Source: Mugil cephalus (Eukaryota). From it: DNA of 64,000 bases. A program made the translations under genes and the position numbers. Below, piece after piece: positions 1 to 62,590 of this stretch. Position 1 is the first letter of the stretch. Every line of letters begins with the position of its first letter. A model generated the notes under the pieces. It did not search any database and was not told where the DNA came from. It saw nothing but the letters and a program-made list of their open reading frames with translations. Where the stretch lies: assembly GCF_022458985.1 (NCBI RefSeq), contig NC_061781.1, positions 26,257,222 to 26,321,221 on the forward strand, given 5' to 3'.

Positions 1-566
1 ACTTTATGTTTGTTACCTAAAAAGCTCTTCAACCACCACCACCTCCCCCATAATCATCCCACATATCCATCCAGGATACCTGTTACACAAATCACCATAA
101 AATCTCAACGATTGACCTTAAATTGGAAAGAGATATGTTTAAGTGGTTTTATATCATTATTACACATATCAAGAATAATAACATTTATTATGTCAGGGTC
201 AGTGTCTCCATTAACTTAGGAACTTTATTAAATATGAAGCAAAAACAAACATTTACAGACGTTAGACACTGAATTGGGTCAAACTGACTCCAAAGACAAA
301 TAATAGGAGGGTTAAAAATAAGTGTTGGTCAAAGTGTTACAAACAGAGTTGCTATAAAAGCAAAAAGAGGACAAAGAGGAGGAAGAAGTTAAAAATGATC
401 ATTAAATTAAACACAAAGGACTTTTGAAACGAGCACTGACTAACTACAGGACTAACCAGTAGGTGTCAGATGTTATGTGAATGTATCTCGTCCTCTTCTG
501 ACTTTCTCAGAACAAAGAATTGTGTGTTGACACGTTACAGAAAGCTAACAGCTGTCTTGTCTCCAG

Positions 567-836
567 CCAACTGTGTGCTGATGGTCAGAGAGCTGAAAGA
601 TGTGGAGGTCGCGGCCCCAGACGAAGCCTGCTTTGAATGTGAGGTGTCAGACCCCGTCCTCAGGTCCCCAGTGTGGAGTCTGAATGGGGAACCGTTGCAG
701 CCTGGCCCCCGCGTACACCTGGAGAAGATGGGCACCGTCCACAGGCTGACACTCAGGCAAACCTCCCCAGAGATGAGTGGAGAGGTGGAGTTCACGTCTG
801 GGAAAGCGAAGAGCATAGCCCGGCTTCATGTTCAGG
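567..836 (+). CDS. Single obscurin/OBSL1-type I-set Ig-domain exon (phase 1-1); acceptor ctccag|CC at 566, donor CAGG|GTGAGT at 837
   Basis: Translation ...ELKDVEVAAPDEACFECEVSDPVLRSPVWSLNGEPLQPGPRVHLEKMGTVHRLTLRQTSPEMSGEVEFTSGKAKSIARLHV matches the ~90-aa tandem Ig repeat pattern of obscurin/OBSL1. One Ig per symmetric phase-1 exon is typical of that family. No further plus-strand exons were found in the window. Confidence 0.55.
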
Positions 837-972
837 GTGAGTTCAAGAAGAACATTGTTCTTATTAGTAATAACACAGCTCTCACTAGTGGAAAGCAGCT
901 ACGTATATAAATCAAGTACTGAAGGACAATGTGAGGTACTGGTAGTAGATCCAGAGGGATGAATGTCTCATG

Positions 973-5349: not shown

Positions 5350-5478
5350 TTAGCTGGACGTCCTCTGCTGCTGGAGAATACCGTACACGTCGTCCACTTT
5401 GCTTAGTCTCTCAAAGAAGGGGATAAGGTCCAGGAGCTCGGTGTCCGACATGTCGTCAAACCAGGACGCTACAGGAAC
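5350..5478 (-). CDS. ctdspl: ctdspl exon 7 (last) [42 protein letters not shown]
   Basis: Acceptor ctccag|GTT. Stop TAA at 5350-5352. Matches the conserved SCP C-terminus. Confidence 0.9.
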
Positions 5479-5599: not shown

Positions 5600-5785
5600 T
5601 GCGTTGTCGGGGTGGAAGACGTAGGAAGCGGGGGAGTTGTCTATGATGATGACCTTGTTGAGGTCTCGTCCTAAACGGCTCAGGTCTTTGACGTAGTTCC
5701 CTTTGTGGAAGACGCACGACTCCCGGAAGAGACGGCTCTGGAACGCCCCCCATTTATCCAACAGGTCTGACACTGGGTCAGCGTA
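5600..5785 (-). CDS. ctdspl: ctdspl exon 6 [62 protein letters not shown]
   Basis: Acceptor ttccacag|TAC, donor GCA|GTACGT. Conserved SCP sequence. Confidence 0.9.
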
Positions 5786-6859: not shown

Positions 6860-6952
6860 CTTGGACAAGCTCGCCGTGAACAAAACACACTCAAACATCT
6901 CTCCCATTCTCTTGAGGAATTCATCAACGTGGGGTCTCTTTAACACGTACAC
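6860..6952 (-). CDS. ctdspl: ctdspl exon 5 [31 protein letters not shown]
   Basis: Acceptor cacacag|GTG, donor AAG|GTCTGT. Conserved SCP sequence. Confidence 0.9.
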
Positions 6953-7329
6953 CTGTGTGGAGACACAGGAGGCAGAGAGGTAGGACATGCAAAATGTAAT
7001 CATTACTAATTCTGTCATCAGGAATCAGATCAGGAACACAAACGACTGGAAAAAATAAAGAAATAAAAGCCTCTAATCTCTGAACATGAGTTCTATCAAA
7101 ATGTCACAAAGATGTTTAATGTTACGAATGTTCAATGTTCAATGTTTTTATGTTGTTGCGGGACTGATGCAACTTGTACTTGCTTCCATGTGTTGATGGT
7201 TTGAGAAAAATAAAGATCAAATCAAATCATCAGATGGAAAGGAATAATATAAACGCCACTCTGTCTGTTTAACTCCGTTCAGTAGATCAGAAGCTGAACA
7301 GAACTACTTCCACTAAGACGCTGGCGGCC

Positions 7330-7410
7330 TTGTTTCTGAACCAAGTTATCCCGAATAGGCTTTCCCCACTTTAACAAGCCTATCCTGGATTACTTGAAAC
7401 AGACCCAGGC
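7330..7410 (-). ncRNA. mir26a: pre-miR-26a hairpin in the ctdspl intron between E4 and E5; mature 5p arm at 7377..7398
   Basis: The minus-strand 22-mer at 7398..7377 reads UUCAAGUAAUCCAGGAUAGGCU, an exact match to miR-26a-5p. The opposite arm (7341..7362, CCUAUUCGGGAUAACUUGG-like) is complementary and resembles miR-26a-3p. Intronic placement in a CTDSP-family host is the conserved arrangement. Confidence 0.9.
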
Positions 7411-7890: not shown

Positions 7891-7947
7891 CTGGTGAACT
7901 GTTCCATCAATTTCCACTGGAATGATAAAGTCTGCATTGTTCACTGG
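7891..7947 (-). CDS. ctdspl: ctdspl exon 4 PVNNADFIIPVEIDGTVHQ
   Basis: Acceptor cctgcag|CCA, donor CAG|GTAGGA. Conserved SCP sequence. Confidence 0.9.
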
Positions 7948-11278: not shown

Positions 11279-11380
11279 CTTAAATGAACTATGCACTAGT
11301 GTTTCATCCAGATCGATGACCACGCAGATCTTTCCTGCATCATTTGATTTCATTTGTGGAAGTAGCGGTTCTGCTGGAAC
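11279..11380 (-). CDS. ctdspl: ctdspl exon 3 [34 protein letters not shown] (start of phosphatase domain, DxDxT motif)
   Basis: Acceptor ttatcttcag|GTT, donor AAG|[15 protein letters not shown] is the catalytic motif of FCP/SCP phosphatases. Confidence 0.9.
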
Positions 11381-12117: not shown

Positions 12118-12200
12118 GAATAAAGGCTTACCTTATCTTATCTTATCTTATCTTATCTTATCTTATCTTATCTTATCTTATCTTATCTCTCTTTACTTGT
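12118..12200. repeat. (CTTAT)n pentanucleotide microsatellite, ~16 copies; reads (GATAA)n on the gene strand, immediately 3' of the giant acidic exon's donor
   Basis: cttatcttatcttatc... visible in the sequence. Confidence 0.9.
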
Positions 12201-12203
12201 ATC

Positions 12204-14744
12204 TTATCTTACCTGCTCTGCTGGTGGAAAGCAGTGTTCGCATTCACATTTCTCAGAGGATTCGTCATCACTTTGCTCCTCTTCTGAATCCCCGCTTTGT
12301 TCGGAGGCCGTGCTACTCTCAGTCCTTTTCACTAGCTCGTCCTTTCCTTCAGTTTTGGTATGTTCCGGGACACTGTGGATAATATCTAGAGGGGGTCCTG
12401 TGTCTCTTGATATTTCATCCAACTTGCACTCACCAAAGTCGTCTAGTTCAATAACTTCAGTGATTCCACATGGGGCTGATTTGCCCTCCTCTGGGCAGAC
12501 TCCGGTGGCCTGTATCTCAGTGTCTTCCACATGTCCTTCATTCATGGAGGCATCCCCATCATTCATTATATTATTGTATGATGTTCTGTTCATAACAAGT
12601 TCGTTCAAGGTTTGTTTAATGGAAGACTGAATGCTTTTAATATGATATGCATAGTACTCCTCAACACCTGCCTTAAAATACTCTCCAGTGTCTTCATTAT
12701 CCACAAGGGCCAAGTATGGCTCCATTTCTGAACATGTCGGAAGCAGTTTATCTTCAGGCTCATCCTTGTCATCCTGTTTGTAGTCAGTACTTGGTGTCTT
12801 GGCCACATCACCAGGACATTCGCAGTGACTGTGGATCTTGTCTTCGTAAGCGTCACCTTCAACAGAGATCTCCTCAGCACATGGTGCAAACATTCTCTCC
12901 TCATTACAAGCAGACGGGCAGGTCTCAGCTCCTTCATTACACACCTCAGAAACATGGTCATTAAATCCACAGTCTTCTTCACCAAAGGGCTCTTTATCGT
13001 CCTCTTCCTCCTCATAAAGGCTGTAGCTCTCTGTTTCATTTTCTTCATCCACAAACATACTTGACTCTGATTTCACCATAAACTCCTCTGGTTCTGTCAC
13101 TGAGTCATAAGACCCATCTGACGGTGCTGCATCTTCTTCATATGCATCTTCAGATAAATCTTCGGTTTCTTGTACATTTATCTCCTCGTCTTCTTCCTCA
13201 TCTTCTTCTTCTTCGTCAGATTTATACGAATATTTCTCACTGTCTTTCTGCTCTTCTTCTTCACGGTACAGGCCTTCATGGATATCTCCTCCATCGAAAC
13301 AGGAGATGTAACGTTGCTTTTGTGCAAACATGAGCCCGTAATAGTCGCCTCTGTCAAACAAATCAAAGTAATCTTCAATAACGATATCAACAACAGGTGT
13401 TTTCTTCATTTCGTCATCACTTTCATTGGCGTTACTTTGCTGCGTTTCTTCATCATCCTCAAAAGACTCCCAGTCCGTCTGCTCGTCGCTGGAGTCTTCC
13501 TGAGCTCTCTTTTCAGATTCCTCGGACGAATCATAATAGGGATCAGAGTGAATACTGCCTTCAGGACAAGTCTTAAAGGATTTGGTTTCCACCGAGGAGC
13601 AATCAGAGGAACTGTCTTCTTCAATGCAGAACATTAAACTCTTCTTAGGTAGCTCTGAAGAAGAAGCACATTGCTGAGTTGGCTTATACTCTTGGGTTGT
13701 TTCAGAGTCATCATTTCCAGAGAACTCAGTGGGATCGTGGGATGTGTCTACGGCAGTAGTTTGCTGTGAGTGTTCTCCGGTGTAAAGCTGTGACTCACAC
13801 AAATCACTTGCAAGGGAGACGTTGTCACTGTTGTCCGAATAAGCAGGTGTGTCCTCTGACTGGTTATGGGACTCTTCATCACTGAGTTCAGTTTCATTTT
13901 GTTGAGGTTCATAGCTGTCATCATCATAATCTTCTTCCTCCTCTTCCTCCTCATCCTCCTCCTCTACCTCATCGTCATCAGTGCATCCAGTTTGGTTGTT
14001 ACTCTCGTCATATTCACAAATGTCAGTACCACAGTGCAATGAGTCCACAGAATCAGAGATGTTGGCCGTTTCACATTGCTCAGAGTCCTCTGTTGATGCA
14101 TCTGTCTCATAGTCAAAGCAGCCACACGGCTGATGTGATGACGGCTTGTAGTGTTGCATTAACTCAAGGTGTTCTGTGCATTCAGGTATGAAACCAGACA
14201 TTTCACACTGCTCCAAAGTGCCACAGTTTGCATCCAATTCGTCTGGATCAAAGTCTGAACACTGTGACTGTTGATCAGAGGGCTTACATTCATGAAATAA
14301 CTGGAGGTGCTGTGCGCAGTGTTCACAGCAGGGACTACATTCGCTAACTAAGCTATGATTAGCACAGAGTTCAGAGCACTCGCACGTTTTAAAACACTCA
14401 CATTGTTGATCACATTCATGGAGTGGTTGGCTTAACTCAGAAGTTTCACACATATTGAGGGTCTGGTCGGAATCAAAAAATCCGCTGCTTTCTGAATATT
14501 GCTGAGAGCTTTCAGTATGTCCATTGTAGGGTTCACTCTCATCTGTGTTCATGTTGCCATGCTCCAGAGAAGCACAAGCGTCCATTTCTCCACTGACAGT
14601 GGGCTCAGGGTACTCCACCAGGACCTTCATGTCCAGTCCAACACTTCCAGTTGAAGGGCTGGATAAGTCAGCAGCTTGGGCCTGGCATTGTTCAGCACGC
14701 ATGGCTTCAGCGGACCGGTCCCCTTCTCCAGAGTCTTTGCTTTT
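12204..14744 (-). CDS. Giant open acidic (Glu/Asp/Ser-rich, Cys-containing) reading frame inside ctdspl intron 2. It is either an 844-codon in-frame cassette exon (12213..14744) or an independent nested 832-aa gene (ATG 14702, TAA 12204).
   Basis: About 2.5 kb with no stop codon. An upstream acceptor ...tttatttggaaaactgag|AAAAGC lies at 14744 in phase 0, and a perfect donor GAG CAG|GTAAGA lies at 12213/12212 in phase 0. ctdspl exon 2 ends in phase 0 and exon 3 starts in phase 0. The protein has EEEDEEEEEEEDYDDD runs and Cys-patterned segments (CECFKTCECSELC, CSPCCEHCAQH, KCECEHC). No family was recognised. Confidence 0.6.
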   Translation of the reverse strand, partial: KSKDSGEGDRSAEAMRAEQCQAQAADLSSPSTGSVGLDMKVLVEYPEPTVSGEMDACASLEHGNMNTDESEPYNGHTESSQQYSESSGFFDSDQTLNMCETSELSQPLHECDQQCECFKTCECSELCANHSLVSECSPCCEHCAQHLQLFHECKPSDQQSQCSDFDPDELDANCGTLEQCEMSGFIPECTEHLELMQHYKPSSHQPCGCFDYETDASTEDSEQCETANISDSVDSLHCGTDICEYDESNNQTGCTDDDEVEEEDEEEEEEEDYDDDSYEPQQNETELSDEESHNQSEDTPAYSDNSDNVSLASDLCESQLYTGEHSQQTTAVDTSHDPTEFSGNDDSETTQEYKPTQQCASSSELPKKSLMFCIEEDSSSDCSSVETKSFKTCPEGSIHSDPYYDSSEESEKRAQEDSSDEQTDWESFEDDEETQQSNANESDDEMKKTPVVDIVIEDYFDLFDRGDYYGLMFAQKQRYISCFDGGDIHEGLYREEEEQKDSEKYSYKSDEEEEDEEEDEEINVQETEDLSEDAYEEDAAPSDGSYDSVTEPEEFMVKSESSMFVDEENETESYSLYEEEEDDKEPFGEEDCGFNDHVSEVCNEGAETCPSACNEERMFAPCAEEISVEGDAYEDKIHSHCECPGDVAKTPSTDYKQDDKDEPEDKLLPTCSEMEPYLALVDNEDTGEYFKAGVEEYYAYHIKSIQSSIKQTLNELVMNRTSYNNIMNDGDASMNEGHVEDTEIQATGVCPEEGKSAPCGITEVIELDDFGECKLDEISRDTGPPLDIIHSVPEHTKTEGKDELVKRTESSTASEQSGDSEEEQSDDESSEKCECEHCFPPAEQVR

Positions 14745-15778
14745 CTCAGTTTTCCAAATAAATCACAAAATTATGTGTACGTCTGGGCTACGTTTGTTCA
14801 GAGTTGCTACTCCATGCATTGGTTCCTGCAGAGACCAACTCCAAATGACTGGCACGTCATTCAGGTCCATTCAGAGTGGATATTAACGGAGCTGGTAGAG
14901 GGGGAGTCACTGAGACCACAGCCCACCCCAGGGAGTAACAGCAACAGGAGTAGCTTGCACGCTGACATGACAGGTTGTCAAGACCAAAGCTGAGACTACC
15001 ACTTGACTCAACCCTCCCTTTACCAGAGACCAAGCAATGTATTTTAGGGGCTTGGAAAGACGTGACAAATAACTTCTGGAATATCAAATCTCTATAAAAG
15101 GCTGAACTAAGGCATAAATCTGAAACTGACACCTGAGAACGTCTTGGCCACTTGATCTTCAGACCATAACTGCAAAAAGCCATGTTGTTTTCCATGAATA
15201 TACTGTGTTTATCCATAGAGATCCATAGGGGGTATTGTCAATTGGCCAGAACATTTACATAACAGAATAGTGGCCTGTCATTGGTGGATCAAGCACTTAG
15301 TTCATATCCAACATATCCATTCACACGCTGCAAACACCTCTTTAGTTTACAGGTATTTATAATTTAAAGTATTTTAATAATCTGTTCATTTTCTGTACGT
15401 ACAGTATGTTTAAACCCAATCAAGCACATGATTTTAATGATATCAGAACCTCTTCTACATAGTCATTGTAATATCTCAACTACTGCTTGTAAAAAGCAGC
15501 AGTTTCCAAGTCAAACATGCACTTGTGTAACATTTATCGCGGCCTACTTCTAACTACCTGATTAATGTCTCTTTTCACCACTGCCATATGTTACAGTCCA
15601 GGAGAGATGCACTGGTAAACATGAAAAGCTTTGAGCAAAGAAAACATGTGTTTCACACATCAAACCACTGTCAATCATAGCGACCTCATGCTGTTCAGGC
15701 AGCACCGCAGAAGACGGATGAGAGAAAGTCGATACAGGGAACTGAAAGTGAGACAGGGACGTTGAGACGGCAGCTTAC

Positions 15779-15927
15779 TTTCGACAGAGTCCCGTTTTCC
15801 TCGACCAAGAGGGGGACGTTGTTTTTTACTGACGGGGCCTCGGGCTCTTTGTGACACAGACAGCAGAGGAGCCTCTGGAGAAGGCCTCTGCTGCGAGATT
15901 TCTTCGACACTGGAACTTCATGAGAAC
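15779..15927 (-). CDS. ctdspl: ctdspl exon 2 (G)SHEVPVSKKSRSRGLLQRLLCCLCHKEPEAPSVKNNVPLLVEENGTLSK
   Basis: Strong pyrimidine-rich acceptor ...ctctctatgatctag|GT. No in-frame ATG upstream within the exon, so it is internal. Donor AAA|GTAAGC. Homologous to the CTDSPL N-terminal region. Confidence 0.8.
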
Positions 15928-22559: not shown

Positions 22560-23300
22560 AAAAAATAATTTGGGCTCATGTCTGTCCGCTGTGTTGCTCC
22601 GTATTAGCGCGTAAATTCGCATTTTGCAAATTTACGCTTAGACCCTGTGGCTGACCGCTTTTGGACCGCGGGCCAAACGTTTGACACCCGTGGTCTAAAA
22701 CAAGAGGAGCGCATGGCGGATTGTCATAGTGTCCGTGACCCCGCCCCCTTATTACAGAAGCACTAATTCTAGTGTCCAACTCTCAGGACTATTAAAAAGT
22801 CCCCACAACACCGCGTCGTTACGCACTTTCACTTTCTACCACTCGTTTAACTTCACGTTTCTCTAGTTTCTTTTCTCCTTAAAGCGGCGAAGCTGGACTC
22901 AAAGTCCCTCAGACTCAAATGCTTTAGGAAGGTGTATGAAGGTGTGTGTTAGTGAAGCGGAGCATTGTGACGGAGAAACCTCTGACATTAGTGACACTTC
23001 CACGGGGCTTCGCAGCCCACTCGTCATGCGCAGCTCACAAAACTTTCCCCAAACTCACCTTCTCCGAGACAAGTCGCATTTTCCTCCTCGTCCCTCGACA
23101 CTTGCGTGATTATCGACAGCGGATGGTCCATTATTTCCCGACGGGACGCCGCAAGCACAGTTTAGGATCAGTTCGAAGAGTTAAAAAAAAAAAAAAGTAT
23201 TTATATTTTGCCACTCCCTGTTTGCAAACGAGCATGCTGAGAGGTCTAAAACACAGAAAGTACAGGACAGCCCACGACGCATTCCACCACGCTGGGGCAA
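22560..23300 (-). promoter_or_regulatory. ctdspl: CpG-rich region spanning ctdspl exon 1 and 5' flank, a probable promoter/CpG island; contains a 29-bp perfect palindrome GCGTAAATTCGCATTTTGCAAATTTACGC (22606..22640) in intron 1
   Basis: High local CpG density (ccgcgggcc, cgcgtcgttacgc, cgacgggacgccgc) against a CpG-poor background. Encloses the ATG exon. Confidence 0.5.
23059..23131 (-). CDS. ctdspl: ctdspl exon 1 (MDHPLSIITQVSRDEEENATCLGE + 1 nt); donor GAAG|GTGAGT
   Basis: ATG at 23131. Matches the CTDSP-family N-terminus (MDxxxIITQV). Lies in a CpG-rich region. Phase-1 donor. Confidence 0.75.
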
Positions 23301-33828: not shown

Positions 33829-33911
33829 CTTCACAAGAAAAAAAATCTACTTCATTAACTGTCTGTCTGTGGTCAAACATAGAGTCATGAAGAAAAGATT
33901 CTGCTCCATAC

Positions 33912-36639
33912 CCTTTGATGTGTCCGATTTCAGGCTGGACATGGAATCTAGAGACTCTGATGATGCACCATTATTAGCCTGAGATGCCAGCGTGTTCTGA
34001 GGAACACTGGGAACCTTCATACCACGATTCTCTGATGTTGAACGACGAAGCATAGAAAGAATGGGTGTCCTTTTCTGTTCCTTTTCATCTGATGCTCTCC
34101 TTTCCTCTGAGTAGCTGCGAATTCTCGTGGAGATACCCGCCACTGTTGATTCAATCTTCCTGCGCATTGCCAATACTGGAGATTCATTAGGTTTCTTGAG
34201 CTCCTTTTCATTTTGTTCCACTGATTTATCACCTCCACCATCCATTTGCGTCATCTCTACTTCTTTCTTTTCCTGAGAACCTCTTCGGCCAAGAGTCCAA
34301 GAAAGACGGCGCCTAGAAACAGAATCTTCTTCTTTTGTCATTTCGTCCTTGTGCTCCGTTGATGGAGTTCTCTTCAAACGCATAGAGAGCCTTCTCATAA
34401 AGCCTTGGTCCTTTTGAGCTTCACGAAGGTCCTGGACCGACTTTGACTTCTCCTCTAGTCTCCTTGGCCCTAATTCCAGTGGTGCACCCACAGGCCTCGG
34501 TCTGTATATCTCTTCACCTGTCTCTGTATCGTCCGATGAAGGAGCTGGTGGCTTATCATCATTTTTTGACCGTGTAAGAAATTTAAAACTTCTTGAGAGC
34601 GAAGATTCACGTTTTTTAAAGCGGGCCTCAAAGACCTCTTCAGAGCTAATGTCCTTTAGGTCAACTCCCGGTGAGAGCTCTTGTTGTGATGGGGAATGTG
34701 TGATAGTCGTTGGTGGACTGGATTCTTTTGTGATCATTTCTGGTGACGCTACCCTGGAGTATACAGCAGGGTGCTCAGTGGTTGACGTGACGACTAGTTT
34801 TGGACTGGGTAAATCGGAGGATGTGCTGGCAGGTAAAGATGTGCCAGTTGATACTGAGGATGATGAAGTACCTGGAAAAATCACAGGTTTTGAGGGTCCT
34901 AACTGTGGGTCACTACCAACATTTTGTGAAGGGACCATGATGGTCTGCATAATACTGGCATATGCTGAAGTCCTTCCATCTGGAAGAACAACACGTGCGG
35001 GAAGGAGGGGCGTAACCAATGATGAGACAACAGTTCCTGGGGAATGCGAATAAGCTTGTGTTGGTGTCACCATAACTGAGCTTGTGCTCATGGTCATCTC
35101 AGAGGATTTCACATTGATATTGACTTCTTCTCCTACGCTTTCTTCAATAACTTCAGTATTTGATTCAACAACACTGTCTACTCTTTCCTCTTCTTCTCTC
35201 ACGATCTCTTTCTTATCTTCCTGCCTATTTTCTCCTTCTTCTTCTTCTTCCATTTTCTCATCTAGTTGAGAGCTTTGGGCCATGGGAGGAGGTGTAGAAA
35301 TTCTCTGGCTCATACATTCTGATTCAATCATTGGTTCTTCTGAAATACTCATGTCCTTCTCTGAGAAACCACTTGTGCTTGATCTCTCATCAAAATTACT
35401 ATCTGTAGTCAGCCCATCCATCTTTTCATTGATACTCTCTTCAGGCTTTGTCTCCTTCTCCATTAATGAATCCTCACTCTCTGTTTTGGATGGACTCTCC
35501 TGCATAACAAGCTCTGGTGTCTGTGGTTTTGGTGAAGGTTCCCTGGGAGTCACTGGACGAGAGTCTAACTTAATTTGCTCGGTCAGGGCTGACATAGATA
35601 TTGCCTCCTTCAGTCTTCTCTCCTCTACCTGTGCCAAGGGAATCTCCAGAGGAGCTCCAGACCGGCGGTGTAAAGGTACGGGTTCTGGATCTCCCTGACT
35701 GAAAGAAGTACTTTTGCGCAATACTTTTGGTTTGGGAACTTCATCCCTTGGGAAATCACTGGATGCAGCTCTAGTTAGTGGAGGTGGGCCGAGACGAGAG
35801 GTACGAGAGTAGCGGTCTGAGGAAATTGCACGCTTTTCATCTCCCATTCCTAATGTTTCCAACAGAGGTCCTCTCAGTCCACTCATCTTGTTGTCTGCAG
35901 AGGCACCACGAAGCAGCCGCTGTCTCATCAGCTCAAGTTTAAGAGCATAGTCTTCTTGACTCATTTTGGCAGTTCCTGGGCTGGTGCTCCTCTTTGGTAG
36001 TTCCATGGAGACAGCTTTTTTAAGAACTCTTCTGCCTTCCTCTTGGTTTCCTTCACCAGCACCTTCTTCTGGTGTAATCCGAAGCGTTAATGCACTGTCA
36101 GCTGAGCCGCCACGTCTAAGCTCGCCTCTTTGTCGTCCACCTTCTGGTTTGTCACCCTCCATGCTTGAACCCCTCCTGAGCGGTTTTCTAGAGACCTCTG
36201 ACTTTTGTTTCAATTCAGCAGGTGATTCCTCATCTGAAGAACCTCTGTCATGGTCTTGAGATAACCTTTTACTATGGCGGCCTTTACTTGCTACTTCAGG
36301 TCCTTCTTTGTCCATTTCTTTGTGGTCACTCTCCTTTTCTACTTCCTGGACCTCAGAAGGGGGCCCAGACCATTTACTTGTTCCATTCTGCTTCCTTGGT
36401 TCATCTTCATTGGTCTGAATATCATTCAGTGATATCCTTGATCCAGAGAATTCCATATTAAGTGGCATTGGAATAAAAGGCAGCTCATCAATGTCTTCAT
36501 CAGAATCAGAGGATGACGACAAAGGTAAGCCCTCCTTAAGGTGCCTGGGAACTGCAATGGAGATATGGCTGGACGAATCATTCAGTAGCTCAGGTATGGA
36601 CCTCATGACCATTTTTGATTTATAGCTGATTAGAGAACG
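33912..36639 (-). CDS. speg: speg inter-kinase exon, 2,728 nt (909 codons), Ser-rich and disordered
   Basis: Acceptor ctttttag|CGT, donor AAGG|GTATGG. Conserved blocks RSIPELL, SSSDSDEDIDELPFIPMPLNMEFSGSRISLNDI, LRGPLLETLG, PLEIPLAQVE, VLAMRRK. Confidence 0.85.
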
Positions 36640-42849: not shown

Positions 42850-43228
42850 CTGAGGAAAGAATGGGCACAAAGAAAAAAAAAGACATGGATGGTCAAACGT
42901 TCTGTGATAAATCTTCATGCAGGTGTTTGGAAATGTTTCAGTGGTTTTCACACATAATGTTCCCAAACCTAACGATACGATTAAAAATACTTATCTGAAA
43001 GGCAGACCAACAGTTTTTGTGGTGGAAAGTTGATTTGCCAGGCCAATTAAAACTGTGCAACGTAGCAACGTAGTCACATGCATCAACCAAGCACCACATA
43101 GTTCAATTAGTTTTCAACAAAATGGCTCTGATTGAGAGGTATTTTTGTATCTATATATAACACATAATGAAATCCTAGTGGTGTTACCAGACAAAAGCTG
43201 AGTGCAGGTTAACTCAATATGCTCCTAC

Positions 43229-43387
43229 CGAAGTGACTCCAGATGACCTTAGGAGATGGCGTGCCACTGACTTTACAGTCAAACCGAGCGTTGCGCCCCT
43301 CGATCACCTCCAGAATGTCCAACTTGCGAGTAAAGAGTGGCTCAATGGAGGGAAGGACTTTGAGTTTGCCACTTGAGGTCACCTCCT
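43229..43387 (-). CDS. speg: speg Ig N-half ([53 protein letters not shown])
   Basis: Acceptor cttttcag|AG, donor TTCG|GTAGGA. Confidence 0.85.
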
Positions 43388-43463
43388 CTGAAAAGCAAAA
43401 GTCATACATACTTGATGATTCAGTAAAACAAATAAATTCCTTCTCATTCCACACGTTTCCTAC

Positions 43464-43724
43464 CTTTAGCTGTGCTGAGCTTGCACATGTACGTCCCGCT
43501 GTCATCCTCGTGCACGGAGTTGAGCAGCAGTCGACACTTTCTTCCATCAAAGTGCATTTTACAGTTGAGCAGTGCCGGCTGGATGAGTTTCCCATCTGCG
43601 AGCCAGTCCACATCAGTGTCCTTCGGTCCGATGACGTGACACTCAAACAAAACCGTGTCTCCAGCCTTGGCTGTGATGTCCTTGACCGGGCGGATGACAG
43701 CGAGACCTGGCTCAATTGGTGGCG
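43464..43724 (-). CDS. speg: speg Ig exon (…[62 protein letters not shown])
   Basis: Acceptor ttcccag|CG, donor AAAG|GTAGGA. Confidence 0.85.
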
Positions 43725-47052: not shown

Positions 47053-47229
47053 CTGCACATTTTAGCAAAAGAAGAGCCTTAAGTATTTATTTTTGCCATA
47101 AAATTAAAGAAAAAAAACATCCCAGTAAAGAATGAATCTCTGGTTAATGAAACATTTGAAGCGAGCAGACTGAAAATTCACTGACCTACAGAAAGCTTAA
47201 CGAAAGTAGTCTTCTCAACCAACTCTTAC

Positions 47230-48723
47230 CTAACTCTGGCGACATGGGTCTTGTGCGACGGTTCTTGCCTTTGGTCTTCTGCTGCTGTCCACTTGTAGTC
47301 ACCTGTGGAGATTCCTTTGTCTTCGCAGGAACATCTTCCATTTTTTCATCTTCAACGATAATTGTAGGAATCTTAAGGCCTGGTTTGGATACCTCCTCTT
47401 CCATTTGGTCATCTACCGGAGTTACAGGTGTTCTTAGGGGTTTTTGAGGAGGTTGAGGAGTAAAGTCTTGCACGGCAACGGTTCTTTTTTGCACCAATGG
47501 GCTTTCAGGTCTGTTTTCAATTTTCCTCAGCGCCACTTCCACTGGTGTCTTTTTCGCTGTAGTTTCATCCTTTTGTGATGTTTGAACAGGAGATTCTTGG
47601 ACGTGTGGTGGTTCTTGAATTCGAGATACCCGTTGTACAAGAGGACTTGGTGGCCTTCGCTCAACCTTGCGTAATGTCATTTCTGCAACATTTCTGCTCG
47701 GTGACTCGTCTCTTTGTTGCTGGTATAGTGCCGGTGATGATGATCGCTGGATGATTTCTGTGGCGGGACTGACTCTGTTTAATCCTCTCACCGACCGTTG
47801 TCCTGGTAAGTCAGATAACTGCATCGACTCAGGGGTGCCTGCGACTTCTCCAAATCTACTGATTGTTACAGGTGCTGAACCAGGGCCTGTCTTTTGAGGT
47901 AGGGGTTTCTGCTGTTCTTGTGGTGTTTGCTGCATTGGTTGCTGACCTTGTTCGTTTTCTCTCTGTTTCTTTTCCCACTGGACACGTTCCCTTTCTTGGA
48001 GCTTTTGTAGCACTTGCGGAGGAATAGGTTCAATTTTCCTGAAAGGTTGCCGCTGCTTTCCCTTCAGGGTGAGCTGTTCAGTTGAAAAAGATTTCTTCAT
48101 ATGAGGTTTTCCAACAAGTTTCTTAATGCGCTGGAGCTCTTCGGTGAACTTGTTTTCGATGTCTTGAACTTTTTGGGAGTAGCGTGGTTTCTCCTCCAAG
48201 GAAGCGGCTCTTTGTCTGAACATAGATCTACGCTCAGCAGCATCTTCTTTCAGAGCCTCCCTGAGATCTTCCCTTGAACTCTCTCTAGAAATTCCCAAAC
48301 GGCTTCCTCCGTCATCTGAATCGACAGATCCGGCACGATTGAACCCTGCCCAGGATCTTCCAGAGATGGATCCTTCTGGAATATCAAGACTTCGCCTGCG
48401 TTCCTCTAAGCCACGGACCTTCTCAAATACCTTTGAGCTCGCCCTTGTAAGCTTTGGGGAAGGTCTGGAGGTGAATTCTTTCCGGGAGTACTCACTCAGG
48501 GGAGTCTGTGGTCGGGAGTCGTGGGTGGTACCTTGAGAAGTCGATTTTGGCTGCTTGACTTTTTCTTCAAACTCCCCAGGCACTGTGTCTTGGTAGTCAG
48601 TGGGGACAACAGTTTTCTTTAGCAGGCTGACAGGAGTGCTTGAACCAGAGCGACTTGGAATAGGAGAGGCAGGGGTTCGTTTGATCAGCCTTGGAGATGG
48701 ATGTGGGAGGACTTGAGGACATT
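47230..48723 (-). CDS. speg: speg large Ser/Pro/Gln-rich linker exon (5' boundary uncertain; extra small exons between 48723 and 49316 possible)
   Basis: Open frame 47186..48772. Donor TTAG|GTAAGA at 47230. A phase-compatible acceptor caagag|AA lies at 48723. Content (RKEFTSRPSPKLTRASSKVFEKVRGLEERRRSLD..., QRAASLEEKPRYSQ) parallels the SPEG N-terminal linker. Confidence 0.7.
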
Positions 48724-49315
48724 CTCTTGAAAATTCCAGCGACTGGTTCCTGAAGTAGAGGATTTGAAGCACAAAGTGTTGGAATCAGTAGACTGTTACT
48801 AATTCATCATCTGCCAAGTAGTGTGCCTTAGTTTAGATACAGTCGACACACAAAGTTCTAGCTGCTAAGGTGAGTTGTATGTTTCTCACTTGCCTGCTTG
48901 AGTGATCCTCATGTCCATGTGTTCTATTGTCATCTTCTTCACATTTGTCCATCACTGTATTTGATGTAAAAGAAGAGAACACTTGAGAAACTGCAAAGGA
49001 TTGGCTATGAGGGTTCTCAGGGAGCTAGGTATTGGTGTTAATTAAGCAACAAGGCAGCTTTAAGGCTGCACTAATAAATATTTTACCTCTCTTTACCCCA
49101 AATTTCCATACCAATACTTTCTGCTATAACACATTGCCACACAGCCAATAAAGCCAATAATAGCAGTAAAATTATACCCATTTTATTTGTCATTAATGCC
49201 TATAAAAGTATCATATTTTATACTGTAGCAATTTTTAAAAGTGCTTTAAAACAAAACTGAAAGACAATCCGGAATATATAATATATAATTATACTACCAA
49301 AAAAGGAATGAATAC

Positions 49316-50172: not shown

Positions 50173-51788
<1,616 letters not shown>

Positions 51789-57000: not shown

Positions 57001-58329
57001 AAACCGTGTAAAACAAGTGTGGTGAAATAGCACTTCTCTTCCTGCGTATTTCTAAACATGGTGGCTGCCCTGATGGATACATGCAATACAAGGTGTCGAC
57101 ACAGTGGCAGAGCCCTTAAAAATGAAAGCACCTGTTTAGACAGATCGATAGATCATCACATTTGCACACATCTTAACCTTTTATTACCTAGTTTTCATCC
57201 GGCCCTTGCACAAAGAATCCTGTTGCATGACATCCTAAGAAATACGTGCGCAAGCAGACAAATGATTATGTGAAACCGACTGAACTGAAACCAGCATGGA
57301 TCCGTCTTGACATCTTTGTACAAGCAAATGCACGCCATATTTATTCTATTTGCAGGAAAAAGCAACACTACACTTCCCACTACACGCTCCTGCTGAGACT
57401 TGCAGAACAAAGACCAAGTGCTGGAGCTGATACATGAAGGCCACACATGAGGCGATGCTGATGTCATTTTTCAAAGCAGCTGGGGTGGTGAGAGCACTCA
57501 GGTGAGCTGAATTTAGACCAGAGCTGGGGATGGTAGTAAAAAAAGAGGTTTTGTAGATCCGAATGCTGTGACGTCCTTCTGCGCATCCTTGGTTAGACAC
57601 TGAGGCACCTCAACACACTCAGGAACTAACATCTGTCAAAAGCACTCGTTTCCAAAATGTGTGGTGGACATTTAAAGATTCCACCATGTGCTAATTTTAC
57701 CACATGCGACAAACAACATCCTGTTGTAACTGAATAGAATATTTAGATAAAAACAATATGTGTAAAACAAATCTGCCATTTGATGTGGATTTTATACAGA
57801 AATACATCGTGTTTGTGTACTGCACACATCGTATGTACATGTAAATATATGCTTTAATAAAATGTATTTTAACTTGTACTCTGTTTTACCTTTATTTGGT
57901 GCATCATCTGATAAATAAAGTAAAATGAAGAAAAGTAAAATGATTCAGCCTGATGAAGTACTTACAGTAAGTTATAGTTCAAGTATTATTTGTATAATCA
58001 TCATTTCATACTGGAGCTAAAGGAGCTGGAGGTTGGACCTATCACTTATCTGGGGGTTGGGCCTTTTGGATGACGAGGCCATTTTCACTGAGCGTTGTGA
58101 TGTTGTGATGATGATACATTCATCACATCATGCAGACAATGACGGTTTCTGACAGTCTAATCCTGTGACGCACTTATATTGGATTATTATAGTGGAAGTA
58201 TCTTGAAGTCTGTAGTAGTTCTGCACTTAATTGGATACTACTTATTTTAAAAGTGTGATGGTTTTTAAATACCTGAAAGAGACAATCTCATTCTTGCAGG
58301 TAAAACTTGAAATGCACTTTTGACATTAC

Positions 58330-58747
58330 CTTCACCCAGATCCAAGACAGCCAGCACAGCGCTGCTCCGAGCTTCTCCCAGGTGATTATTGGCAATGCAG
58401 GTGTAGAGTCCAGCATCATTGGGTTTGCAGTCCCTTATCCAGAGCCCTCCGTACTCTTGGTTCTCCATGTTGACCAGGTCCTCGTTGTGGTACCAGTAGA
58501 GCGAAGGCTGGGGGTCTCCAGCCACCGTCACCTTGAGGCGGATGTCACAACCCGTCCCCACGGCGGCGTTCCTCATTTTGCGTACGAAAACGGGTGGAGA
58601 CGGGGTGGGATAACCGGCTCCCCGAAGTTCTGGGACAACTCGCTCCGGGCTCGCTTTGGACCGTTTTGGGGGGATGACGGGACTCGGTGGTGCCACTGCT
58701 TCATCGGCCCCTTTTTTCAAGGTCATTTGCACCTCACTTTTTCTCAT
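58330..58747 (-). CDS. speg: speg exon 1 (ATG 58747; Ig-like 1); donor GAAG|GTAATG
   Basis: MRKSEVQMTLKKGADEAVAPPSPVIPPKRSK...LAVLDLGE. Phase-1 donor. Confidence 0.85.
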
Positions 58748-61505: not shown

Positions 61506-62590
61506 TCACATGAACGTGGACGTGATTTCTGATGACATCGAGGACCTGCTGCTTCTCGACACCGACGCTCTCTCCAGCATGCCCACCTTCCTCATCATCT
61601 GCAGCAGCTTCCTTCTGAATTTCTCACCCACAAAAGCATACAGCACCGGGTTTACACAGCTGTGAAGCAGGCCCAGACTTTGGGTGGCAAACATGGCTTT
61701 ATCCACCGCTATCCTCGCTGGGCACTGGTAGGGCACGATCTTTGCCCTGAAGAAGGTGTCTGCCATCACTGCGATGTGGTACGGAGTCCAACACAGCAGG
61801 AAGGCCACCACCACGCACACGATCACTCTCATGGCTCGCTGTCGCTGAAATCCCCCACGGATGTGAAGGAGGCGCTCGATAGTTGTTCCATAACAGAACA
61901 GCATGATGCCCAAAGGGATAATGAAACCCAACACGTGCCGAAAAACTCTGGTGGCCAGTCGCCACTCGTCGGCAGAGCTGGGATCATATTGTTGAGCACA
62001 CATTACGTGAGTGGAGTTTGAAGAAGAAAAGGAAGAACTGAAGAACCCTGGCAGAGACAGAAGTGCTCCAACAGCCCAGACGCCGCCGCAAACTCCCCAA
62101 CTGACCCGCTGGCGGTCAGCCCTCCGGGCCTCCGTAGCTCGTACGATCACCATGTAACGGTCCACACTGATGCAAGTCAGGAAGAGAATGCTGGAGTAGA
62201 AGCTTAGTTCTTGGAGGATCGTGACGATTTTGCACATGGCATCTCCAAACACCCAGCCCAGCAAAACAGAGGTGGCTGAGAATGGCAGGGTGACGGCCAC
62301 CAGGAGGTCTGCAACTGCCAGGTGGAGGAGGTAGAGGTCAGAGGGACGCAGCGACTGGCTGTTTGAGCCAATCACCAGCCCCACGATCAGATTTCCAGGA
62401 ATGGCCAACAGAAAGATGAGGACGTAAAACACAGTGACGGCAATCGCCACAGGGTCTGGGACGGACAGAGCGGCACATGGCTGCGTTGCAAGGTCTATGG
62501 TAAACTCGGTGTAGTTGTAATTGTAAGTTATGTTGAGTTCGTCATAAATAAGGCCAAAGTCATCAATTAACAAAAGGGACTGGTTTGGAT
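61506..62590 (-). CDS. CXC-chemokine-receptor-like class A GPCR (cxcr3-like), main coding exon (2 nt + 361 codons incl. stop)
   Basis: Seven-TM architecture. DRYMVIV motif. ...RAMRVIVCVVVAFLLCWTPYHIAVMAD... and ...LGLLHSCVNPVLYAFVGEKFRRKLL... closely resemble CXCR3 (CWTPYH, LYAFVGxKFR). Ser-rich C-tail. The ORF-track 'M' at 62573 is a TTG. Confidence 0.8.

Follow-up and report, generated by a model that had tools for sequence, protein, structure and literature searches.

Why does a small phosphatase gene, whose neighbouring coding exons measure 57 to 186 nucleotides (nt), carry an open frame of about 2.5 kb in one of its introns? The question is raised by a 64,000-nt stretch of the genome of the mullet Mugil cephalus (assembly GCF_022458985.1, contig NC_061781.1, positions 26,257,222 to 26,321,221 of the forward strand), hereafter the window, whose own numbering is used throughout. 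An earlier note on this DNA, made from the letters alone, had assigned the gene to ctdspl and proposed that the frame is either an extra exon between two phosphatase exons or an independent nested gene. We arrive at another answer. The open frame is very probably an alternative first coding exon of a ctdsp1-like gene, giving a long isoform with an acidic N-terminus. This isoform would be transcribed from an internal promoter, and its N-terminus may have a regulatory or targeting role.

The open frame exists and is slightly longer than first described. The minus strand is free of stops for 852 codons, from 14762 to 12207, between a TGA at 14765-14763 and a TAA at 12206-12204; the earlier count was 844. 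The ATG-started open reading frame (ORF) in the ORF listing occupies 12204..14702 on this strand and encodes 832 amino acids (aa). At the per-codon stop probability of 0.060 given by the base composition of the window, a stop is expected every ~17 codons and an open run of 844 codons has a chance probability of about 1.4e-23. The three longest stop-free runs in the window measure 930, 852 and 532 codons, the acidic frame being the second. Its 832-aa product contains 17.4% Glu and 10.8% Asp (28% together), 11.9% Ser and 44 Cys (5.3%), with an isoelectric point of 4.05 and a net charge of about -193. The Cys motifs quoted in the earlier note (CECFKTCEC, CSPCCEHC and KCECEHC) are all present. CK2-type sites (S/T-x-x-D/E) account for 32 of the 147 Ser/Thr residues; no enrichment is apparent against the rough expectation from 28% Asp+Glu, and no claim is made of them.

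To which gene does this frame belong? A protein search with the ORF returned 120 homologues, all from teleosts. The ORF is 100% identical to two M. cephalus proteins of RefSeq locus LOC125017520, XP_047456760.1 and XP_047456759.1. The best match, named 'probable serine/threonine-protein kinase kinX isoform X2 [Mugil cephalus]', has 968 aa and carries the FCP1/NIF phosphatase domain (Pfam PF03031). Its cluster mate XP_047456759.1, 'uncharacterized protein LOC125017520 isoform X1', has 1,018 aa and is rebuilt exactly from six exons of the window, all on the minus strand, all GT-AG and all in phase 0. The first of these, the alternative first coding exon or big exon (12213..14702; 2,490 nt, 830 codons), runs from its ATG to CAG|gt and encodes the hyper-acidic, Cys-bearing N-terminus; its donor, CAG|gtaaga, lies at 12213/12212. 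A (GATAA)n microsatellite (window ~12130-12205, minus strand) starts directly past this donor, and the read-through TAA at 12204 belongs to it.

The exons downstream are common to both transcripts of the gene. The first of them (11279..11380, minus strand), to whose acceptor the big exon and canonical exon 2 alike are spliced, carries the catalytic DLDET (DxDxT) motif. It is followed, on the same strand, by phosphatase-domain exons of 57 nt (7891..7947), 93 nt (6860..6952) and 186 nt (5600..5785), and by the last coding exon of 129 nt including the stop codon (5350..5478). The intron that separates the 57-nt from the 93-nt exon contains a mir-26 precursor (7329..7409, minus strand; Rfam RF00244, 61.4 bits, E=1e-12). 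RefSeq isoform X2 omits exactly the two exons that flank this intron, which leaves its catalytic domain short by 50 residues. Judged from the sequence, the X2 product is probably inactive because these catalytic-domain residues are removed.

The canonical transcript starts further upstream. The coding part of its exon 1 (23059..23131, minus strand; ATG at 23131) reads MDHPLSIITQ...; MDHPLSIITQVSRDEEENATCLGE, then a gt donor. Exon 2 (15779..15927, minus strand) encodes ...RGLLQRLLCCLCHKEP...LLVEENGTLSK, with a di-Cys palmitoylation-type motif, and is followed by a gtaagc donor; it is absent from the long isoform. As the earlier note had stated, the big exon sits within intron 2 of the canonical transcript, and three boundaries are all in phase 0: the end of exon 2 at 15779, the start of the DxDxT exon at 11380 and the donor of the big exon. 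The junction 12213->11380 proposed there is also correct, since it occurs in the exact rebuild of XP_047456759.1 and again in Sillago muscle mRNA contigs. In the 1,018-aa product, ~830 acidic residues take the place of the 74-aa canonical N-terminus encoded by exons 1-2.

The earlier note had doubted that such an arrangement was a described feature of the family. The literature is indeed silent: a survey covering ctdsp1/CTDSP1 isoforms, teleosts, Mugil cephalus and skeletal muscle found no paper on the long isoform. On the other hand, predicted long isoforms are deposited in RefSeq and GenBank for many species. At the level of sequence the finding is therefore not new, the exon being already in gene models, and it is the N-terminal extension that is without a published description.

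The host gene has the marks of an FCP/SCP phosphatase of the HAD type. DLDET is encoded in the 11380-11279 exon, PF03031 is found on the orthologues, and the match to SCP1 structures has E=2.8e-107. An intronic mir-26, expected for the CTDSP family, is provided by the RF00244 match. Against the human proteins the catalytic domain scores 359.8 bits with CTDSP1/SCP1, 335.2 with CTDSPL and 323.6 with CTDSP2, and several orthologues of the locus carry the name ctdsp1. The label ctdspl is probably wrong because CTDSP1 scores highest and because of these orthologue names; on sequence similarity the host gene is probably ctdsp1-like, with a modest score margin.

What speaks for the big exon as a first exon? 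Most orthologue models begin inside it: among the proteins fetched, MYLENS is the start in 66/148 and MPAEHC in 11/148. The salmonid, Esox and Umbra models fall within the MPAEHC group or start a little further upstream. Two Logan contigs, L001 (3,479 nt) and L002 (7,786 nt), carry the big exon joined in frame to the phosphatase exons, intron-free. Their source runs are muscle RNA-seq from adult females of Sillago sihama (SRR10743281) and S. aeolus (SRR10743285), respectively (PMC7222750). The S. sihama contig has a 152-nt 5' leader that is colinear with window 14904-14719, with no splice from exon 2. The S. aeolus contig extends upstream unspliced, across intron 2 and exon 2 into part of intron 1, and contains no junction between exon 2 and the big exon.

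In the mullet itself the start of the exon has been displaced. DNA alignment with a related mugilid-like contig and the two Sillago mRNAs, together with upstream translations, marks 14745..14765 (minus strand) as the decayed remains of the ancestral start. Where orthologues have the ATG of MYLENSE..., the mullet has ATT (14763-14761), and the loss of 2 bp near 14750 has shifted the frame. There are in-frame stops upstream of the exon, of which the TGA at 14765-14763 limits the present open frame. With the ancestral ATG lost and the frame shifted, the conserved second Met, at 14702, is used instead.

The alternative that survives best, although a quite improbable one, is that the big exon is an internal cassette, spliced between exon 2 (donor 15779) and exon 3 to give a product of ~1,100 aa that keeps the canonical N-terminus. 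All three boundaries are in phase 0, exon 2 is present upstream of the big exon in the S. aeolus contig, and some GenBank models do join exons 1-2 to the big exon, one of them (P0060) near its 5' end and three (P0084, P0085 and P0087) at internal sites. However, the S. aeolus contig retains intron 2 unspliced, the S. sihama leader is colinear with the genome, and most models begin within the exon, at the two starts counted above. The five joining models bear hypothetical-protein or submitter-style names, not RefSeq LOC names, and their acceptors are mutually discordant. The specific form of this idea in the earlier note, an insertion product of 1,106 aa made through an acceptor at 14744 (junction 15779->14744), fares no better. 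That site, ctgag|AAAAGC, lies in the stretch that relatives translate as MYLENSE... and that has decayed in Mugil, and no transcript shows the junction; the acidic region replaces exons 1-2, and the product is of ~1,018 aa.

More improbable still is a product free of the phosphatase. Here the big exon would either remain unspliced at 12213 and end at TAA 12204, as in the nested gene of the earlier note, or be spliced to some other terminal exon, giving an acidic protein of ~832 aa. A stop does stand only 7 nt beyond the donor, and a RefSeq isoform of Channa argus (X2; P0033, 870 aa) lacks the phosphatase domain and has a different tail. Yet the read-through tails are 1-40 aa long and unconserved, whereas the EQ|gt boundary is conserved throughout, its phase included, and both mRNA contigs are spliced to phosphatase exons. 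An isoform without the catalytic domain could occur as a minor form, but it leaves the conservation of the junction unexplained.

The reading as an alternative first exon next meets the question whether the frame is under selection. The ratio of nonsynonymous to synonymous substitution rates (dN/dS), the check proposed in the earlier note, lies at 0.21-0.45 and not near 1, indicating purifying selection. Between Mugil and its closest contig (L003, DRR477420; 72% aa identity) the value for the big exon is 0.45 (bootstrap 95% 0.35-0.57), with 0.28 in the conserved blocks only and 0.55 in the linkers only. Between the two Sillago species the big exon gives 0.21 (bootstrap 95% 0.15-0.27), and the phosphatase part stands at 0.04.

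Conservation is concentrated in seven blocks. They cover residues ~95-140 (Cys/His-rich), 355-420 (acidic/Ser), 435-480 (DYFDLFDR..YISCFDGGDIH), 600-620 (APCAEDISVEGDAYED), 655-700 (CSEMEPYW...EEYYAYQIKSIQS), 770-778 (PPLDIIHSV) and 800-830 (SEEEQSDDES..CECEYCIPP). The C-terminal CxCxxC (C819, C821 and C824) shows no variation among 39 orthologues, nor do the corresponding Cys among 53 more distant ones; several Cys in residues 97-139 are nearly invariant.

Orthologous frames number more than 130, counted over acanthomorphs, salmonids, Esox and Umbra. An exhaustive profile search of 1.84 billion (1.84e9) protein representatives retrieved 26 proteins, all of them teleost orthologues or fragments, the farthest being from Coregonus. 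A further search from the Coregonus N-terminus added Salmo, Oncorhynchus, Salvelinus, Esox and Umbra, with two divergent loci each in Coregonus and Salmo. Profile and protein searches found no homologue of the exon outside Euteleostei, whether in other fishes or in tetrapods. A word-indexed search with the alignment of the most conserved 130-aa core gave no matches, known orthologues included, which is a limitation of the tool and not evidence. On this distribution the origin of the exon goes back at least to the euteleost ancestor, and both salmonid ohnologues kept a copy. In syngnathids (Hippocampus, Syngnathus) the exon is much shorter.

The notion of a fortuitous open frame, or of untranslated low-complexity sequence kept open by its composition, can point to the abundance of acidic low-complexity sequence, to the fast-evolving linkers (dN/dS 0.55) and to the lack of a Pfam or PDB match, but it is effectively refuted by the comparative data, namely a chance probability of ~1e-23, a frame open in >100 species across Euteleostei, dN/dS below 1 in 1,000/1,000 bootstrap replicates, invariant residues across the seven blocks and spliced mRNA in muscle, so that the claim of a coding, non-chance frame holds.

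If the big exon is a first exon, from where is it transcribed? A noncoding element of ~480 bp (14766..15250, minus strand) lies immediately upstream and is a putative internal promoter and 5' leader. It shares 92% identity with the mugilid-like contig and 85% with Sillago aeolus, rising to 92-100% in a core at 15051-15200; it is far more conserved than the coding exon (protein identity ~50%). Among its conserved motif matches are a CCAAT box, several E-boxes and a CArG-like box (CCTTTTATAG). The element is taken to be noncoding because its mismatches lack 3-periodicity (25/24/24) and its indels are not triplets. A coding role, either as a 119-aa ORF or as the 'MSACKLLLLLLL' mini-ORF, was considered and is ruled out by the mismatch periodicity and the indel lengths. 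Within the element there is a mini-ORF 'MSACKLLLLLLLPGVGCGL...' with its ATG at 14968; in Esox and Coregonus the equivalent ATG shares the frame of the big exon, and RefSeq isoform X1 starts there.

We propose that transcription of the long isoform starts in intron 2, with the 14766-15250 element as its probable internal promoter and leader. The same promoter may also transcribe the intronic mir-26 downstream. As that precursor is encoded beyond the big exon, transcripts from either promoter would include it.

What kind of protein region does the exon encode? A Pfam scan of the 832-aa ORF at E<=1 found no family, and a PDB profile search with the orthologue alignment gave a chance match only (E=0.22). 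In the AlphaFold model made with 39 orthologues the mean predicted local distance difference test score (pLDDT) is 45, and the sole confident element is a helix at residues 680-713 (pLDDT 81-88). The Cys-cluster regions (97-139 and 819-824), considered as a possible zinc- or metal-binding domain, have pLDDT <50 and no Pfam or PDB match, despite their conserved Cys pattern. The most fitting description of the region is an intrinsically disordered acidic tail with conserved short motifs.

SCP1/CTDSP1 has been investigated for its regulation of RNA polymerase II, REST, Smad and AKT, and its short N-terminus decides between membrane and nuclear location. Palmitoylation of the N-terminal di-Cys C44/C45 brings human SCP1 to the plasma membrane (PMC5404917). 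The counterpart of this motif in mullet exon 2 is LLCCLC. The long isoform would not be targeted to the plasma membrane by the human SCP1 route because exons 1-2, with the di-Cys motif, are absent from it. Instead, the acidic tail and its conserved linear motifs may target or regulate this catalytic domain in muscle. They could do so by binding basic partners, by binding Ca2+ or another metal, or by masking the active site. A bolder version holds that the euteleost exon created a muscle SCP1 proteoform, whose tail binds Ca2+, metal or basic partners and gates or retargets the phosphatase, and at the same time a second intronic promoter that drives mir-26 independently. We regard this full version as speculative and rather unlikely.

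Several points weigh against the interpretation as an alternative first exon with its own promoter and role. The upstream extension of the S. aeolus contig fits pre-mRNA read-through, and the contig could be pre-mRNA from the canonical promoter, not the product of an internal start. Exact-product look-ups found no M. cephalus transcript on record for either RefSeq protein, and the muscle expression support comes from one tissue and one genus, Sillago. In a few GenBank models (e.g. P0060, from Dissostichus eleginoides) exon 2 is joined to the big exon. The matches to promoter motifs are of the plain consensus kind and count as weak evidence. In the AlphaFold model of a full-length Siniperca orthologue (53 sequences) the mean pLDDT is 40 and the phosphatase domain is poorly modelled, so that no contact between tail and domain can be read from it. 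Finally, the role in retargeting or regulation is one that we only infer.

How does the mullet gene compare with its relatives? Both CTDSPL and CTDSP2 also host mir-26 copies. Like the mullet gene, human CTDSP1/SCP1 (261 aa; PDB 1TA0, 2GHQ) has the FCP1-homology DxDxT domain (360 bits, E=2.8e-107) and the intronic mir-26 layout, and the canonical exons 1-2 with the di-Cys motif are present in the window as well. CTDSPL (SCP3) and CTDSP2 (SCP2) have a catalytic domain very similar to that of the mullet, with scores below CTDSP1. The N-terminus is where the difference lies: that of human CTDSP1 is of ~75 aa and palmitoylatable (PMC5404917), whereas the mullet long isoform carries in its place ~830 residues, acidic and disordered, that one exon in intron 2 encodes.

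CTDSPL2 and FCP1/CTDP1 combine a small HAD-type carboxy-terminal domain (CTD) phosphatase domain with a long, largely disordered, partly acidic extension that is thought to mediate targeting. The mullet long isoform resembles them in that a CTD phosphatase domain is joined to a long disordered extension. No sequence relationship between their extensions and the big exon was detected, the exon profile retrieving teleost orthologues only and no Pfam match. Moreover, CTDSPL2 and FCP1 carry their extension constitutively, whereas in the mullet it comes from an alternative first exon in a gene of the SCP1 type. We know of no such long isoform in tetrapods.

The names given to the orthologues are of little guidance. 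'Serine/threonine-protein kinase kinX', 'dentin sialophosphoprotein-like', 'protein PFC0760c' and 'FYV8-like' have in common only an Asp/Glu/Ser-rich composition. There is no kinase or other shared domain: in the full proteins Pfam recognises PF03031 alone, and the exon has no match. The database names are inconsistent and composition-driven, and even TIM50 has been given to fragments. In practice, kinX, dentin sialophosphoprotein-like and TIM50 should give way to 'ctdsp1 long isoform'. A swap of the N-terminus that has been kept since the euteleost ancestor, and in both salmonid duplicates, would imply an unstudied mode of phosphatase regulation or targeting in most teleosts. The internal promoter, if true, would bear on the expression of mir-26 apart from its host gene.

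The window contains other long ORFs. Two on the minus strand, at 33847-36612 and 47186-48772, encode 921 and 528 aa that are rich in Ser, Pro, Glu and Lys and have no Pfam match; they correspond to the 930- and 532-codon runs mentioned above. Amid the long ORFs there are ORFs with Ig I-set domains at 43209-43715 (minus strand), 58265-58747 (minus strand) and 470-910 (plus strand). The 921- and 528-aa ORFs look like large disordered exons of an Ig gene of the SPEG or obscurin type. An intact-looking ORF of 340 aa at 50540-51562 (plus strand) encodes a transposase of the Tc1/Sleeping-Beauty type with HTH_SB, HTH_Tnp_Tc3_2 and DDE_3 domains. A single-exon ORF of 355 aa at 61506-62573 (minus strand) encodes a G-protein-coupled receptor of the rhodopsin family (7tm_1, E=7e-65).

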